Part shown: positions 3,460 through 14,190 of the stretch, one piece after another
How the letters are laid out: the number at the start of each line of letters is the position of its first letter
How positions within the stretch are numbered: position 1 is the first letter of the stretch
From: Spizellomyces punctatus DAOM BR117
Lineage: Eukaryota
Reading direction: 5' to 3' (one strand)
Assembly (NCBI GenBank): GCA_000182565.2
Contig: KQ257454.1
Length of the DNA stretch: 64,000 nt
Position numbers and translations under genes: made by a program
The notes under the pieces: generated by a model
The model's database searches: none
The model's input: only the letters and a program-made list of their open reading frames with translations
What the model was told of the DNA's origin: nothing

Positions 3460-5411
3460 TCACTCTATAGCAGTCCAATCCGTCCTCTGCTTCCCTCTCC
3501 TCTTATTCTTTTTATCATGCATTTTTTTCGCTTTACCCATGACTTGGGGTTCGGCTCCTTGATGAGGGTACACCTTGACCCGATTGAAATCGGCGGAAGC
3601 GTATTTTCCCATTGAACCTGCTCGTACGGTTTGTTTTTGGGGTGCAAAAAAAGCAGCGTCCAGTAGTGAAGAGTTTGGAGTGCTAAGTGAGGTTGCTGGT
3701 GACTTGCCCTTGGCGTCAGATGGTGGTGTGGATTCGGGTTTGCGCTTTGCAAAGCGCTTGTTTTTGTACATGGGTGCATTGAAGGTGTCGGGGTTGATGT
3801 TGGGTGGTGGGTGGGCGTAGAGGATTTTTCCGTTGACATAATCTTTGAGAATGTAACGGGCTGCACGGGCTTCGTCGGGATTTCCTTGACTGCTTTTTGT
3901 AAAACCTCTTGCTACGGCGTAAGCAACAAGAAGCTCCGTTCCTGTTGGCTGTCGATCTTCATCGACGCCTTCTGCATTGCGTGTGCGAATTTTGATTCCG
4001 TAGACGTTTTCAAGGACCCATTTGGGGACGCGTTGTGCAACCAGTGAGCTGGGGCCTGTGAATTCACGGAGTTGGTCAATGGGCAGAATGCCGTTGACCA
4101 CTAGATCGGCTTTGGTGGTTGCAAACGAGGGGAATACAAGACCGGGACAATCACAGAGGATCATGCTTTCAGAAAGATGAATTGTCTGAAAATGCTTGGT
4201 CTTGCCAGGTGTGGAGGAGACAGTGACACGTTTGGCGCCCACTAAGGCGTTCAGGGTAGAGGACTTTCCGACGTTGGGATAACCAACAAAACCAATGGTG
4301 GTTTTTTGTCCACCAGATTCCACCTTGCGGAGCGGCTCGGGACATTCCGTTTCAAAGAGCTCGATGAGTTCATCGGCACCAATAATCCGCGCACGCTCTG
4401 GAACTTCGGCTTCCTCATCGACCTGTATCAATCCTGTAAAGGAGGGTCGTCGTTCCGATTCTTTCCGGGGTTGATCGACATCAGGTACACTTCCGTCCTC
4501 AATGTCGTCCTCCTCCTCATCGTCCTCGTCATCCTCCCGATCCACTTGCAGCTGCGCCAAGGCCTCTTCTGCTTTACGCTCTTCTTCTTCGGCCTCTAGT
4601 TTCTCTTTTGCCAAAGCAGCAGAAAAGAACATGTACCGAATACCCTCACGCTCAAAGTAATCCGCCCACTGCAGTCTCTGCTCGACCGTCAACATATCCG
4701 CCTTATTCACCAGCAACAAATTCTTTTTTCGGGGGTCCACTTCCTTGACGTATCGTTCCACATCGGTCGAACGAAACAGCAGTGGATTTCGGGAATCCAC
4801 AATCTGCACCACCAAATCGGATCGCTCAATCACTCTCCACAATTGTCTCCAAACTTCCAAGTTTCTTTCGTAAGGAGTCATGATCAGGCCCTTTTCTTCC
4901 TCCAATGTTGCCAGTCCTCGCCTCCAATCCAGAAACGAATCATTTTCTCGTCGCTTGAGTTCCTCAGGTGTCGTCGTTGTGTCCCACTCTGGTCGTCTCG
5001 GAACGGTCAACAAGTGTTTATGCTCCTGGTGCTGTTGAAGAGTTTCTTTTTCCTTTTCGGGAGTGAGGAGGAAAGGGTTTTGATAGACGTTGGATACAAC
5101 CGTGATGTTGAGTTTCTCCGCTGTGAATTCTGTGCCGGCGAGCTGGGCAGTATTGAGGAAGGCCTCAAGGTCGTTCTCTTGGGTGATGGATTGCATTTTC
5201 GTCCAGTTGGAAGTAGACTCGTCCACTTCTGTGGTGTGCTGAGACCACAAAATACACAAGGTCAAAAAAAACTCGCACTCTTTCGTTTTAACGTCAGAAG
5301 CTTGCTTACCCTAATAGACCCATCCGGATTCATTTTGGTATTTGCATTGAAGCGAGTGCGCATAAGCGCCTTTCCTAGGCCTGCCTTTTTCTTGCTTGTT
5401 GGTAGAGGCAT
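3460..5411 (-). CDS. LSG1: Large subunit GTPase 1 (60S biogenesis/export, circularly permuted GTPase)
   Basis: Motifs TPYERNLEVWRQLWRVIERSDLVVQIVDSRNP, NKAD, GYPNVGKSS, TPGKTKHFQT and DCPGL. Exon 1 MPLPTSKKKAGLGKAL starts at 5411; intron 5239-5309 (GTAAGC..CAG). Confidence 0.95.
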
Positions 5412-6176: not shown

Positions 6177-6763
6177 ATGAAGTACCTCCTCCCCCTCCTC
6201 ATCCTCCTTCCCACGACCCTCGCCCAATTCGCAACGGATTGTGGTCCATCCCTTCAAACAACATTCAATCAATGCGCGTCGAATTCGCTTACAGATGGGA
6301 ATGGCCAACCTGCTCCAGCAGGAAGTTCGGTCGAACAGGCATGTGCATCCGTGCAAGCCAATCAGGCGGCGTATTACTGCTGTTTGTGTAAAGGATTTAC
6401 CGGGATCCAAGGATGGTGAGTATTGTTTGGTTGTTGAGTTGGTGATACCGTAGCTGATTGAGAGTTATGTACAGTATTGCGAATTACTGCCCGCAATCGG
6501 CCTCAGCACCTTCGATTGGTCAGTCTGTTGCGCAATTTTGTGGTGCGTGTCAACCTGCCAGCTCTAGTACGGTCTCGCGGGTCAGTGCGAGCAATGTTCC
6601 CTTCCCTACGTTGAGTGGGGGATTGCCCTCTGCGAGTGCTACCCCTTCTGCTACGCCTGCCCCGACAGCTGGGACGCAGGCCAAGGGAGCCGCTGCGGGA
6701 TTGGGTGTTCAGTGGGGGATTGCCGTGATGGGTGTTGTTGGTGGAGCTGTTGCGTTGGTGTAA
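6177..6763 (+). CDS. Small Cys-rich secreted, probably GPI-anchored protein
   Basis: Signal peptide MKYLLPLLILLPTTLA, Cys-rich domain, S/T/P-rich stalk and hydrophobic C-terminus. Intron 6416-6474 (GTGAGT..CAG). Confidence 0.8.
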
Positions 6764-6888
6764 GTGAGCTTTGGCACAAGCAACAAATTATTGAACTTGG
6801 GCGTGCGCCCTAAAGTGGTGAATGTGGGGACCATATAAGGTCGTGTACTTAGGTGTTAAAAGCCCTGTATCTGAAGAAATGTGAAATA

Positions 6889-6921
6889 TAGTGCGGAGCC
6901 GATGGGTATTGGCACTAGTAC
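6889..6921 (+). repeat. Left terminal inverted repeat of the Fanzor element
   Basis: 30 bp perfect, or 33 bp with one mismatch, against 9002-9034. Confidence 0.95.
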
Positions 6922-7061
6922 ATAGATTCCAACCAATTTAATCATAATTTTACTCGATTTAGACTCATGAACTATGGTTTGTTTGATCCAAAAATCCTAT
7001 GTAAGTTGTCGTCGCCCATTTTCCCAGGCTTTCATCTTTTTCGACAGATACAGATATCATC

Positions 7062-8941
7062 ATGCCGCCAAAGAAAAAGCAAAAGCTTGAAAAACCTACT
7101 TGCTTACATACCTGTAACAAGACTTCCTTTGCAAAAGCTTTCCTGCCAAACTACCACCAACGGCTTCTAGATTACATCGCCATCATCCATCAACTCGCCG
7201 ACCACGCTTCCCACGCGCTGAAATTCTACATCCTATCTGCACCATCCTTCACCGTGAACGAGGAGACCATCGAAGCGATTCTCTATCTTCTCAACAAGGG
7301 GGAGGCTTGGCATCCAAGAAAGGAAGCAAAGAAGGCATGGCGGGATTGTTTGCTGCCATATGTTCAACGGTACTGCCAAATCGTCGGCTTCGTTCATCCA
7401 AATCTACGAGGCGAGCAGCAATCAGTCAATTACCTGACAGCGAGTATGATGACGAACCTGAAAGTCAACATTCAAGAGCATTGCATGACGATGCTGCTCC
7501 GATATATCAATCTGCGGCTTGACGTGAAGGGACGGAAAGGGCAACTGCCACCGAAAAGCGATGCGCGAAAAGCTTTCTTTACTCGGCTACGCTATTTAAA
7601 GTCAGTTTTTCTTTTTGATATCGTGCCCGAGTCGCTGGATGACTTGACCGCTGAAGAGAGTGAGCTTCTAGAAGAGATCTGGACACTTAACCTGCCATTT
7701 CCTGATCAAGACAAGCCGCTTGCCTACCTCATTGCCATTGACGCAATGTCCTTCTTTCCTGCATACTGTCGGTTGTCAAGCCTATATGAAAAGCATGGAT
7801 TTCGACGGTTCAGTGCGATACCTCTGCGCCGCTCGCTCATCCAAAGCAACATTCGCATCGACTCTAAAATCCTGTACCAGCATATCCTTTGCATCACGCA
7901 GCGAGAAGCAGAAGCCGTAGAGAAGGTCGATTTATGGTTGCGCGTCTGTAATCTACGTACCAAAGCTTTTCGGTCTCGCTGTGGTATGCATTTTGAAGGC
8001 TCGATCACGACGGACGGAACCTCGGTGTCTGTATACCTAAAGCACCCAGAAGCTGACAAGTATGGAAAGCGCAGTGGTGGGAAAAAGTCAGCAAACATGA
8101 TGGAGGCAGAGGTTAAAGTGCAATACGTGGAGAAAAACTTACCTGCTTGTCGGGCAGCAGAAAACATTGTTGTCATTGACCCAAACAAGCGCGATATTCT
8201 CTACTGCCAAGACAGCAATGGTACGACGTTCCGTTACACTGCCAACCAGCGAGCCATGGAGACAGGTAGCCGGCGATTTGCAAAGAGACGGGAAGCAATG
8301 AAGAAAAAAGCGGGAATTGACCTCATAGAATCACGAATACCATCTCACAAGACGATGAATCTCATGGACTTCACTCGCTACCTTCTCGTTCGCCGCGCTG
8401 ATTGGGATCGTCGCAAGTACTTCTATTCGCATCCTGCCCACACGCGGTGGAAGTGGCATGCATTTATAAACCGTCAGAAGAGTGAATCGAACCTCATATC
8501 CAACTTGCGCAACAAGTACGGTGAAAACTTTACCATTGTGATGGGAGATTGGAGCGATGCCGGTCAAACTGCAAGATTTCAGACCTCATCAAAGACGAAA
8601 GGTTGGCGCACCCTCTTTACAACCGCATTGATTGTTTTCTTCTTGATGAACACAAGACCTCATCTGTTTGCCCTCGCTGTTCATCCTCTGAGTTTGTTGA
8701 GAAAGGCTTCAAAGAACGACCTCATTCAAGACCTTGGCGGCGACATGAAGGCAAGGTTGAAAAAGTCCATGGATTGCTGGGTTGTACCAACCCTAACTGT
8801 TTGCAGCAAGCCTGGATGATGCGCTACTGGAATCGAGATACACTGTCAACCTGCAATATGCTAACGATCGTGCCATCAATGTTGGATGGGCACTGTAGAC
8901 CAGAGGTGTTCAGCAGGAGGAGTGTTCCAGCCGTAGCGTAG
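7062..8941 (+). pseudogene. Fz1: Fanzor1 RNA-guided endonuclease (SpuFz1-like), frameshifted at ~8619-8620
   Basis: ORF 7062-8819 has NLS-like MPPKKKQK, TDGTSVSV, RuvC-I VVIDPNKRD and VMGDWS. After GWRTLF the protein continues in the frame of ORF 8549-8941 with NRIDCFLLDE (catalytic E), CPRC..CTNPNC (zinc finger) and WNRD (RuvC-III), ending at TAG 8939-8941. Intronless. Confidence 0.93.
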
Positions 8942-8960
8942 CATAGATTAGTTAGATTAG

Positions 8961-9049
8961 CTTTTCCGAACTGGTTGTCGCCGGTTCAATCCCTGGTGCG
9001 GGTGCTAGTGCCAATACCCATCGGCTCCGCACTAAATAGTAATATCAAG
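8961..9049 (+). ncRNA. Putative Fanzor omegaRNA (scaffold ~8961-9034 plus ~15-nt guide from 9035)
   Basis: Lies between the ORF stop and the element end. Stem GAACTGG(8968-74)/CCGGTTC(8981-87) and stem TGGTGCGG(8994-9001)/CCGCACTA(9027-34). Position and sequence resemble the SpuFz1 omegaRNA as I recall it. Ends are approximate. Confidence 0.8.
9002..9034 (+). repeat. Right terminal inverted repeat of the Fanzor element
   Basis: GTGCTAGTGCCAATACCCATCGGCTCCGCACTA, the reverse complement of the left TIR. Confidence 0.95.
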
Positions 9050-9175
9050 AATGTTATGTTACAACCGTCCCATCGCCTGCTGCGCACCAATGCGTGTATG
9101 TCATCCTTTGTTGCCATAGCACCAGCCTACCCAGATCCGCCCCTCACCGACGGTTGCCTGCATTCGCCTTGTGCG

Positions 9176-10457
9176 ATGCCTGTCCCTCCCCGACTGTCCC
9201 TTCTCCTCCAGTCCCCTGTGCGATGGAAGAGACATGCGAGTACTTTTGCCCAGACGATAGGAACAACAGCAACAACATCATGCAACACCTCAAAACGAAG
9301 AGCCTGGATTGTAACCGCCGGAAAGCCAGGAAACGATCGCCAAGCCATAGCACTAGCAAAAGGGCTAGGATGTACCATTGAAATGAAACACATTGTTCCA
9401 CATTCCAGTAAGAACACACATATACATCATCTACTACACAAAACAATTTCTAAAAGACATGTGTAGGCATCAAATGGCTTTTTCCAGTCTTTCAAAAACA
9501 TTTCCTCGATTACCGGTCCCAAACCTTTGGTCCCCACAGCGCACCCACCGATCTCCCCTTTTACCTCACCTCTCCAAAGCATGATACACTTGCTCCACCC
9601 TACCCAGATCTAATCCTAAGTACCTGCGCCGAAACAACCCTCGCATCACTACATTTAAAAAAAACGACTCAAACACCGGCAGTCCATATTGGACTCCCGT
9701 TTGTCAGTGTTGAGGAATTTAATGTTGTTGTTGTGTGGAAGTATGCGTGGCCTGTTTTGGGGATGAGGCGGGATGAGAGGGTTGTTGGTGTTGATGTGCT
9801 TTTGGGAGAGGTTTTGGAGGGTGAGGAGAGCGAAGAGTGTGTTTTGGGGGTTTTGGTTTCGGGGGTTCGGGGACGGGAGTTTGGGTGGGGGGTTGAGGAT
9901 GGGTCGAGGTTTGTTAGGAGGTTGGAGGTAAGGTTGCTTTGTGATGTTTTGGATTGGATTGGGTTTATTGATTGATGGTTCTTTTTTGTTTGTAGAGGCT
10001 TTTACGACATGCGAATCCACCCCGTATTCTTCTTGTGACTTGTCAATCGACACCACAAGCACTCGTACAAACCCTCCAGAAATGGTACACCTCCCTCCCA
10101 CCGTCCAAAGCCTCGCAAATCACTCTCCTCCCATCAACAAAACACGACCACGTTTTACGGCATGCGACGCACTTTGCCGTATTCGGAGATGACGTTGCGA
10201 CACTATCGGAATGCCTTGGGTACAAGAAACCCGTGTATGTGATTGGGATGCAGAATTGTCGGGGGGCTTTACGGAGGTTTTATGGGGATTTAGTAGCCAA
10301 GGCTCGGGTACGAGTTTTTGTTCCTGCTGCACATGCTGGGGATGGGGATGTGTTTAGTGATGTTGGGGAGCATCCAGAGTGGAGGTTTGAGGGGGGGTGT
10401 TTGGAGGGGGTTGTTGCGGAGGTTGGGAGGAGGTTGTGGGGGGATGGGTGGAGATGA
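9176..10457 (+). CDS. Mitochondrial fission ELM1-like protein (multi-exon)
   Basis: N-terminal RAWIVTAGKPGNDRQAIALAKGLG and C-terminal HFAVFGDDVATLSECLGYKKPVYV resemble the ELM1 family motifs DGxxGxxxQ and TxDSVSMLSEA..GKPVYV. The N-terminus is basic and presequence-like. Donor sites near 9407 and 9928. Confidence 0.7.
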
Positions 10458-10583: not shown

Positions 10584-11894
10584 CTATCCACTCGCAACAG
10601 GACTATTATCTTCCTCTGATCCACGCCTGGAGACCCCCTCCAACACAATACTCTCAACATCCACATCCCGATTCGTAATCACCAAATTATCCCTATGAAC
10701 AACACACCCAGAATCAACGTACCCCAACAACCCCTCAATTTCCGAGCTTTTGTGGCCCTTGATACGCAAACACTCTGCAAACGAATAATTGACAAGGCCC
10801 TTTCCGATTTCAATGACGGTTTCTGTATCGTTTTTGTGAATGATGGTGAGGAGTCGGACGCATTGTTGGGCATTAAATGTTCCTTCGACGCGGGCGACAC
10901 CAGCTGCAAATAAAGAGGATCGGTGTCTGTTCATGACGGCGCGGACGGCGCCCTTGTCGAGGTAAATGGCGCCAAAGGATTTAAGACCATGGAGGATCCA
11001 CCATTTTCGATCCATCATGGCGTTGGGGCGGGGTAAAAAGTGGGTTCCGTGGGTTGGACAAAATGGGGTATTCGGGGTATGGGATTGGATTTCGGCGAGA
11101 ATGGTGGGAATGAGAGGGGGGTGGGAGAGTGTGATGATGGTTGTGCATCCTGCCGCTGTTGCAAGATCGGCTGCAACGAGTTTGGTCACCATCCCCCCTG
11201 TACCCAGATGAGAGCCAGGTGACGACACAGTTACTTTATCTCGTAGTTCCCCTACATCCTCTACAACACGTACAGGCCTCGCATCCGGATTCGTCTTTGG
11301 GTTATCCGTATATAAACAATCCACATCGGTCATGAGGAAAAGGTAATCGGCATTGACCATTCCAGCGGTAATAGCCGACAAGGTATCATTATCCCCGAAC
11401 CGAATCTCTGCATTCGACACGGTATCATTTTCATTAACGATGGGGACAACATTCATTAACAAGAGTTCTTTGAATGTGTTACAGGCGTTTAGATATTGGG
11501 TCCGTTCCGCCAGGTTCTCCCTAGTAAGCAATACTTGTGCAATGGGGACATCAAATTGCGCAAAGAGACCATCGTACAATGCCATTAATCGCCCCTGTCC
11601 AACGGCCGCGACGGCTTGTTTGACGGCTAAATGCTTTGGACGGCGGTCAAGACCTAGACGGCGTAACCCAACTCCAACAGCACCTGATGAGACGACAACG
11701 ATTTTGTGCCCGGCGGAACGGAGGTGGACAATGGTTTCGACCAGGAGGGAGAGGGTGGAGAGTTTGGGGAGATGGGTTTGTTCATCGCAAATGGATGTTG
11801 TGCCGAGTTTGAGGACGATGGTGAGAGAGGTGGGATTGGTTCGTCGGGGATTGGTAGGTGGAAGTGGCGGTGTTGAAATGCGTGCAGTTGTCAT
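10584..11894 (-). CDS. PRO1: Glutamate 5-kinase with PUA domain
   Basis: IVLKLGTTS, VSSGAVGVG, AAVGQGRL, NENDTV, FGDNDTLSA and GTGGMVTK, plus a C-terminal PUA-like region. Confidence 0.95.
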   Translation of the reverse strand: MTTARISTPPLPPTNPRRTNPTSLTIVLKLGTTSICDEQTHLPKLSTLSLLVETIVHLRSAGHKIVVVSSGAVGVGLRRLGLDRRPKHLAVKQAVAAVGQGRLMALYDGLFAQFDVPIAQVLLTRENLAERTQYLNACNTFKELLLMNVVPIVNENDTVSNAEIRFGDNDTLSAITAGMVNADYLFLMTDVDCLYTDNPKTNPDARPVRVVEDVGELRDKVTVSSPGSHLGTGGMVTKLVAADLATAAGCTTIITLSHPPLIPTILAEIQSHTPNTPFCPTHGTHFLPRPNAMMDRKWWILHGLKSFGAIYLDKGAVRAVMNRHRSSLFAAGVARVEGTFNAQQCVRLLTIIHKNDTETVIEIGKGLVNYSFAECLRIKGHKSSEIEGLLGYVDSGCVVHRDNLVITNRDVDVESIVLEGVSRRGSEEDNSPVASG

Positions 11895-13179: not shown

Positions 13180-14190
13180 TCTTATGAGCATAGAGTTTTT
13201 TGTTGGGTGGGCGAGTAGTAAGATTGGTTTGTCAAGCGTGTTTTGGAATGTGGGTGTGTGAGTGGTATATGGGAACGGGCAGGTCCTTGTATAGTTGTGT
13301 TTTTTGTTATATATTTTTAGTGTAGAGGTGACAGAAACTGGCACTAGCTACTACACCAGGGAATAAACCAGCGACAACTGGCTCGGAAAAGCTAAGCTAC
13401 TACTAGGCAATTATACACGCAATACGTAACGGTTGGTTCTAACCGGATAACTGCCCACCACCACACGCGGTCCCTACTAGGCCTTGATCCAGAACTCTTG
13501 ATGGCATTGAAGCCAGACTCTTGCATCCAGGAGCAAATCGACTGGGCAGCGTCACAAGCTGGTGGATTTTCAGTGACAAGGCTTGGAGACTAAAAACTGC
13601 ATGTCAGCGACAGAATGACAGAATGAAATGATGCAATCAGTACATACCAACCAAGCTCAACTAATGTGGCAGTATAATAACAGCTTTGTTGGTTCCGAGT
13701 GGTTGCTGCTGGTTCTAGTTGGTTGTAGTCATCGGGAGGGCGAGGTCCTCGGCACCACCACACATCTGCATTCTCATGGTTGGACTTGACAGTCGCGATG
13801 AGGGTTGCGCAGATGCTTTGCGAGTCGAGGATGGGTAAAGAGGAAAGAGGGAAGAGGGAGCAGGTCCCCCTTTTATAGACCTTCGGCATGCGCCTCACCG
13901 CAGTTTAAAAGAAAAAAACATTACAATCCATGCCACACGGTTTTGAGCGATAGAGGGGGTGCTGATTATGCGATATGATTAACCGGATTAATCCGGATAA
14001 AAATGGGTCCTAGAGCCATTTTCAATCACCTCCACACTATGTATATATTCTACGAGGCATTAGAGTTTCCACATAGATCCGATTACGTCAGCATAGTCCC
14101 CGCTCGGCCACATTTCGTTTAAGGCATCCTTTTGCACTTGGCAAGTTGCGGACTTTTACTTGTCAGAAATCACTTTATATTCCTTTCTAC

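Follow-up and report, generated by a model that had tools for sequence, protein, structure and literature searches.

A probable omegaRNA gene at the right end of an SPu-1 Fanzor-1 transposon copy in Spizellomyces punctatus

Fanzor-1 and TnpB systems

Fanzor proteins are RNA-guided nucleases of eukaryotes. The SPu-1 transposons of the fungus Spizellomyces punctatus were described as about 2,100 bp long, with 33-bp terminal repeats and putative TA duplications, and 17 full-length copies were counted, nine with intact ORFs (Bao and Jurka 2013, PMC3627910). A later study puts the Spu-1 locus at about 2.1 kb; its inverted repeats are 30 nt long, and CA is conserved on the 5' side of the left repeat (Saito 2023, PMC10432273). 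In strain DAOM BR117 that study counted 42 Fanzor loci, of which 19 are full-length, and 134 ghost loci, and it has small-RNA evidence for four loci (Saito 2023, PMC10432273). The RNA of this system is 88-90 nt long: a conserved scaffold of 75 nt extends across the right repeat, and a variable extension of 14-15 nt follows it (Saito 2023, PMC10432273). Evidence for the RNA within the family includes small-RNA-seq in the fungus, co-purification of the RNA with the protein, a TAM screen, cleavage assays and cryo-EM (Saito 2023, PMC10432273). In the SpuFz1 structure, a 6-nt linker (A29-C34) joins stem-loop 1 to a stem 2 with a dispensable distal part (C40-G70); canonical stem 2 has an 8-nt loop (Saito 2023, PMC10432273). 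Stem-loop 1 is described as having 7 bp, with stem-loop 2 as the only other stem (Xu 2024). The TAM of SpuFz1 is 5'-CATA; mutating any TAM base abolished cleavage, and R291 contacts the G opposite the first TAM base, the C of CATA (Saito 2023, PMC10432273). According to a 2026 review, the TAM of Fanzor 1 includes the 5' duplication of the element, and the scaffold contains the 3' duplication. Ghost RNAs, which come from elements without any ORF, work with SpuFz1 in human cells (Saito 2023, PMC10432273). The text of that study gives the biological role of Fanzor as unknown and reports that no transposase was found in these elements (Saito 2023, PMC10432273).

The bacterial ISDra2 TnpB system (IS200/IS605), as described, has the same plan. 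Its RNA comes from the right end of the transposon, the guide is flanking DNA, the TAM is at the left junction, and a RuvC nuclease cuts. ISDra2 TnpB is proposed to cut the empty site and thereby to have the element copied back in. The ISDra2 TnpB RNA overlaps the ORF to a greater extent and has a pseudoknot, whereas the SpuFz1 RNA is described without a pseudoknot. IS200/IS605 elements also have a TnpA HUH transposase and leave no duplication, and homing has been demonstrated for TnpB, unlike Fanzor. The PpFz1 system of Parasitella parasitica (PDB 9CF0) is likewise a Fanzor 1 system, with a 7-bp stem-loop 1 and a single stem-loop 2 before the guide. It is described with a different TAM (ATN) and a shorter stem 2, and its protein is only distantly related to the ORF considered here (5.7e-25 and 5.1e-13 for the two ORF pieces).

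The locus analysed here lies in a 64,000-nt stretch of S. punctatus DAOM BR117 DNA, referred to as the window. With a probability of about 0.9, positions 8960-9049 (plus strand) are the omegaRNA gene of an SPu-1 Fanzor-1 transposon copy. The element anatomy, the protein and the scaffold are all present at this locus. Like the Spu-1 (SPu-1) SpuFz1 system, the focal copy is of the expected length, with TA at the ends of its 30-nt repeats. It also has a Fanzor-1 protein that matches 8GKH over the full length (E = 0) and a 75-nt two-stem scaffold over the right repeat with a 6-nt linker and an 8-nt stem 2 loop; the predicted guide starts directly after the TA. The focal copy differs from that system in that the ORF is frameshifted, TA replaces the upstream CA, and R291 is replaced by Q. 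It also departs from the published SpuFz1 numbering by a 1-nt register, on the 3' side of stem-loop 1.

The element and its frameshifted Fanzor gene

The SPu-1 copy occupies positions 6889-9034 of the window (2,146 bp) and is bounded by 30-nt inverted repeats. The element, its Fanzor reading frames and the flanking ORFs are as follows.

3460-5265, minus strand: flanking ORF, GTPase with MMR_HSR1 domain (1.8e-18)
6887-6888, plus strand: the two bases just 5' of the left repeat, which read TA; the family has a conserved CA here (Saito 2023)
6889-6918, plus strand: left 30-nt inverted repeat, including the terminal TA; 30/30 identical to the reverse complement of 9005-9034
7062-8618, plus strand: Fanzor 1 ORF, first frame, from the N-terminus through ...GWRTLF; holds the RuvC-site residues D383 and N385
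8619-8620, plus strand: frameshift site, 4 nt absent relative to paralogues (codons for K-R of LFKRNRI)
8621-8941, plus strand: Fanzor 1 ORF, second frame, NRIDCFLLDE...SVPAVA plus stop; holds E541, the zinc finger and D606
9005-9034, minus strand: right 30-nt inverted repeat, which ends in TA
10584-11894, minus strand: flanking ORF, amino-acid kinase with PUA domain (1.8e-43 and 4.3e-13)

The left and right repeats are identical at all 30 positions, the flanking TA included. The 28-nt core of the repeat occurs twice in the 64 kb (6891-6918, plus; 9005-9032, minus), with 0 mismatches, against a chance expectation of 0.00. An inverted-repeat finder run on the focal element reported 36 nt at 94% identity. 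Both ends of the element carry TA (6889-6890 and 9033-9034). This terminal TA is a putative target-site duplication, though it may instead be part of the repeat sequence. The element sits between genes, and its neighbours look like ordinary cellular genes.

One long ORF lies between the repeats and is split over two frames, which are open over 7062-8819 and 8549-8941. The first frame matches chain P of PDB 8GKH, an MBP fusion of S. punctatus Fanzor 1 (SpuFz1), with E = 0 and 1011 bits over query residues 2-530. The second frame matches the same chain at 1.8e-59, with query residues 25-130 aligned to chain residues 926-1032, and reaches the last residue. Aligned to a 638-aa paralogue (P0004), the first frame is 81% and the second frame 84% identical; residue numbers given here follow this paralogue, and its numbering fits the published SpuFz1 residues. 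A search of public proteins retrieved 60 relatives; S. punctatus DAOM BR117 is the source of the closest ones with names, at 72-92% identity, and the focal element's own 585-aa reading exists among the public proteins as a gene model.

The frameshift lies between 8618 and 8621, and the 4-nt deletion was read from the assembled window sequence. The motif LF(K/R)RNRI stands in a single frame in 5/5 full-length paralogues, whereas the focal ORF switches frame at this motif; a contig of run X1 from another copy carries the extra bases up to 8620. An intact ORF was taken to be one with D383, E541 and D606 in one frame. Here the first frame contains D383 and the second contains E541 and D606; the start codon is thus out of frame with the zinc finger and with two of the three catalytic residues. 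Judged by its sequence, the focal copy would fall in the 'partial' class of Saito 2023. Since the ORF is frameshifted, any nuclease must come from another copy.

A local copy of Pfam returned no significant match for either ORF piece or for the intact 638-aa paralogue. An annotation run with this copy would therefore miss these Fanzor genes. The protein search lists a precomputed family entry for Fanzor, PF26935.1.

The scaffold and its ghost counterpart

The RNA features at the right end of the element are as follows.

8960-9034, plus strand: omegaRNA scaffold, 75 nt (74 nt from 8961), -29.0 kcal/mol, z = -2.90
8968-8987, plus strand: stem-loop 1, 7 bp, GAACTGG (8968-8974) with CCGGTTC (8981-8987), a possible U-G closing pair and loop TTGTCG
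8988-8993, plus strand: linker AATCCC, 6 nt, unpaired in the folds; 5/6 bases the same in the ghost copy described below
8994-9034, plus strand: stem 2, in which a 5' arm outside the repeat (8994-9002) pairs with the last nucleotides of the repeat (9026-9034), with an 8-nt hairpin loop at 9011-9018

A preliminary description of this DNA, made from the letters alone, had proposed an RNA scaffold here with a GAACUGG/CCGGUUC stem and a long-range stem. All the strings that it named are present at the positions it gave, and both stems are found in the minimum free energy (MFE) fold. In the long-range stem, TGGTGCGG (8994-9001) pairs with CCGCACTA (9027-9034), and the final 8-9 nt of the right repeat close the stem. 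The plus strand had been favoured as the RNA because of its G-U pairs, and the folds agree with this choice. The plus strand of 8961-9054 folds to -29.9 kcal/mol (z = -3.04), with 0/200 shuffles as good and both stems in the MFE structure, compared to -24.5 kcal/mol (z = -1.33) and 22/200 shuffles for the minus strand. Across the two-stem folds, z ranges from -2.9 to -3.5, and 0-1/200 shuffles are as good.

The left end of the element provides an internal comparison. The mirror-image 75 nt at that end (6889-6963, minus strand) fold to only -9.4 kcal/mol, with z = +0.45 and 129/200 shuffles as good. Thus only the right end has the structure, which is not simply a consequence of the inverted repeat.

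An inner pairing of GGGUG with UACCC, also part of the preliminary description, was rejected. The two strings (GGGTG, 9000-9004; TACCC, 9015-9019) are complementary, but they compete with two inner pairs of stem 2, and the pairing is absent from both the MFE and the centroid folds.

The scaffold was compared with 18 nucleotides named in the cryo-EM work, namely U5, C6, C7, U16-G20, G22, A29, C32, C34, U35, G37, C40, G70, A72 and A75. The named nucleotides from A29 to A75 fit in 9/9 cases when 8960 is taken as position 1. Those from U5 to G22 fit in 8/9 cases when 8961 is position 1, the exception being G22. In total 17/18 fit, given this 1-nt shift of register, and the 5' end of the scaffold is 8960 or 8961 depending on the register used. 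The shift indicates that the focal scaffold is one nucleotide shorter than the published one on the 3' side of stem-loop 1 (8981-8987) and is the same RNA in all other respects. The named G22 has no counterpart in the focal scaffold. At 8981-8987 the ghost scaffold does not differ in length from the focal one. The scaffold start at 8961, the end at the terminal TA (9034) and the guide at 9035-9049, all proposed beforehand, are correct to within one nucleotide when set against the published description (Saito 2023). A literal search of the main text of Saito 2023 did not find the focal scaffold sequence.

A stretch within the scaffold, GGTTCAATCC (8983-8992), has what we take to be a resemblance to the T-arm or T-loop motif of tRNAs. 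This resemblance is the one point in favour of a tRNA-derived or other known small RNA, an origin that is extremely unlikely. In the region 6500-9500, ARAGORN found 0 tRNA genes and Rfam gave 0 matches at E up to 1, and in the fold this stretch forms the 3' arm of stem-loop 1 and the linker.

A BLAST search of the window with the focal scaffold found a related minus-strand stretch near 13354-13395. This stretch belongs to a second, shorter element.

13318-14039, minus strand: ORF-less 'ghost' SPu-1 element, 722 bp, 4.3 kb from the focal copy and in the opposite orientation
14041-14040, minus strand: CA upstream of the ghost on its own strand, which gives CATA
14039-14010, minus strand: ghost left repeat, 25/30 match to the ghost right repeat
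13392-13318, minus strand: ghost scaffold, 75 nt, aligned to the focal scaffold without gaps, 56/75 identical
13347-13318, minus strand: ghost right repeat, different from the canonical repeat at 9/30 positions
13317-13303, minus strand: ghost predicted guide, at the position after the right repeat

The diverged left repeat of this element was missed by the inverted-repeat finder and was recovered by a mismatch scan. On the basis of its sequence, 13318-14039 fits the published 'ghost' class, although its nine differences from the canonical repeat compare with seven reported for ghost elements by Saito 2023. The focal copy shares the scaffold architecture of the published ghost Spu-1 elements and, like them, has an omegaRNA that needs a protein in trans; unlike them, it has the canonical stem 2 and still contains a Fanzor ORF, though a broken one.

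The scaffold's base pairs are kept in this second copy. The same two stems form when the ghost scaffold is folded (-21.9 kcal/mol, z = -2.94), and 16/16 pairs of the shared structure are kept (32/32 cells pair). Three pairs have changed on both sides: one G-C to A-U in stem-loop 1, and one C-G to U-A and one G-C to A-U in stem 2. Three others have changed on one side, each to or from G-U. Stem-loop 1 thus keeps 8/8 pairs with one double change and the three one-sided changes, and stem 2 keeps its 8 outer pairs with two double changes. In a control in which the 3' partners were slid by 1-3 columns, 25-50% of cells pair and 0 double changes appear. A shuffle control is powerless with two sequences, as 74/500 shuffles reach the observed values. 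The covariation, which comes from two sequences, supports the structure but does not prove it. Scans of metagenomes for further copies gave 0 stretches with a degenerate scaffold pattern, and in a protein-based scan 165 pattern stretches matched, of which tblastn confirmed 0.

The pairing of a subterminal segment with the repeat tip could in principle have another purpose. The complement of the tip might serve recognition of the transposon end, or hairpin formation, at the DNA level by a transposase, with the RNA fold being incidental. The same pairing would exist in single-stranded DNA, and the published accounts know of no transposase for these elements, which leaves room for such a requirement at their ends. 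Nevertheless, this explanation is very unlikely. The G-U pairs and the one-sided changes to G-U work only in an RNA of the plus strand, and the left end has no such complement. Furthermore, RNA of this family has been sequenced, co-purified with the protein and seen by cryo-EM (Saito 2023), and guided cleavage stays intact when stem 2 is trimmed, as the same study in part demonstrates. The preliminary description had also concluded that the terminal repeat doubles as transposon end and RNA scaffold, a dual role that is already published for the family (Saito 2023; 2026 review).

Guide, TAM position and decay of the copy

The guide is predicted to follow the scaffold directly.

9035-9049, plus strand: predicted native guide AATAGTAATATCAAG; family range 14-15 nt; no second occurrence in the window when up to 2 mismatches are allowed

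Contigs of run X1 bear on the boundary between scaffold and guide. Among the 12 loose ends listed for all runs, at least two contigs of other copies diverge from the focal locus at 9035 and at least one diverges at 9038. One contig matches 9006-9250 without a difference. Runs X5 and X6 contributed no contigs. The focal and ghost copies have 9/15 guide positions and 25/60 positions of the longer flank in common, and both flanks are A-rich. Given this 9/15 identity in A-rich flanks, the focal and ghost pair alone gives no sharp drop in similarity at 9034. The two guides (9035-9049; 13303-13317, minus strand) both start with AA and are A/T-rich. Their likeness may reflect an insertion-site preference that extends beyond TA, or it may be due to chance in A-rich DNA.

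RNA reads were taken from run X4, as raw 60-nt reads amounting to about 6% of the run. Among the 4,027 reads placed, 4,019 fit only partly, most of them from other copies. In the plus direction, with a strand convention that is uncalibrated, the depth is 51 in 9020-9045, 11.2 in 9046-9071 and 0 in 9072-9175. This profile is consistent with transcripts that extend a little beyond the repeat before they end. No pile-ups of read beginnings or ends were called at the focal locus in these 60-nt, mostly partial reads. Over 8942-8993, which takes in the 5' half of the scaffold, the depth jumps from 66 to 2,082 and 2,664. Most of this depth stems from other copies; in 3,413 reads the upstream part matches ghost-type sequence and not the focal locus. 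The variants seen at 8987 and 8989 are likewise the ghost-type bases. Ghost-type scaffold transcripts appear to be very abundant in the X4 library. Reads in the opposite direction cover 8994-9045 (depth 96 and 84), and their loose parts correspond to sequence at the element's left junction and in its left interior, indicating that the left repeat is also crossed by transcripts from the upstream flank.

The TAM position at the focal locus reads TATA, from the TA at 6887-6888 and the TA of the repeat, and not CATA, which is found at the ghost copy. The proposed empty site, ...AATATA|AATAGT..., carries the same TATA. Residue 291, which in SpuFz1 touches the G opposite the first TAM base, is Q in the focal copy (7926-7931, codons for Q-R, SpuFz1 numbering). 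Q291 is found in three of the 27 proteins that show the motif, among the 60 retrieved: the focal copy and two others (P0020 and P0026), both of which are partial S. punctatus gene models. An exchange of Arg for Gln matched with a change of G to A is a classic change of base readout. There is a slim chance that the focal copy comes from a small branch of the SPu-1 elements with a nuclease that recognises another TAM. If so, the family would have natural TAM variants, and the focal empty site could be cut by a nuclease of its own kind. Several points argue against such a lineage. R291Q and the C-to-T change are both plain transitions in a decaying copy, and about one change among the six contact residues is expected at this divergence. 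In addition, the focal ORF with Q291 is frameshifted, and the other two Q291 proteins are known only as partial models.

The same features bear on a further alternative, namely that the locus is a dead relic: a decaying copy whose right end yields no functional RNA and whose structure is nothing but inherited sequence. The 4-nt deletion that breaks the ORF is consistent with this, as are the TAM position that departs from the consensus, the origin of all three Q291 proteins in partial models or a broken ORF, and the scaffold RNA reads that come mostly from other copies. On the other hand, the repeats are still 30/30 identical and the scaffold pairs are all intact, locus-specific reads in the plus direction reach past 9034 into 9046-9071, and ghost RNAs that lack any ORF of their own function with SpuFz1 in human cells (Saito 2023). 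A relic of this kind is possible but rather doubtful. The focal copy is best seen as a decaying member of the family that still carries an intact RNA gene.

As an omegaRNA gene, the locus would function in the following way. Transcription on the plus strand would begin inside the element, pass through the right repeat and continue for about 15 nt of flanking DNA. The RNA would consist of the scaffold of 74-75 nt (stem-loop 1, 6-nt linker and stem 2) and then a guide of 14-15 nt (9035-9048 or 9035-9049). In stem 2, the subterminal segment is predicted to pair with the last nucleotides of the right repeat, including the TA. A protein of the SpuFz1 family would bind the scaffold and would cut double-stranded DNA at guide-matching sites that adjoin a 5'-CATA TAM, as others have shown for the family. 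Protein from intact copies would probably act in trans to load the RNA made at the focal locus, as it can with published ghost RNAs. Both binding by Fanzor and guided cleavage of DNA by the focal copy's RNA are predicted from data on the family.

The preliminary description had interpreted the locus as a system that cuts its own empty allele. The scaffold, the guide from the flank and the dual role of the repeat are supported; cutting of its own empty allele is doubtful. With a frameshifted ORF and TATA at the TAM position, the focal copy probably cannot direct the cutting of its own empty site by canonical SpuFz1. Retention or homing of the element through cutting is a hypothesis carried over from bacterial TnpB.

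The RNA, guide, protein partner, TAM and structure are already published for the SPu-1 family (2023-2024), and the focal locus adds nothing new on how Fanzor systems work. The scaffold of a eukaryotic RNA-guided nuclease, its end and its guide were, however, recovered from raw sequence with an error of at most one nucleotide. Three small local features could contribute to a genome-wide survey of decay or diversification in these elements: the RNA gene is intact although the adjacent nuclease gene is broken, R291Q occurs alongside an off-consensus TAM, and a ghost copy lies at a distance of 4.3 kb.
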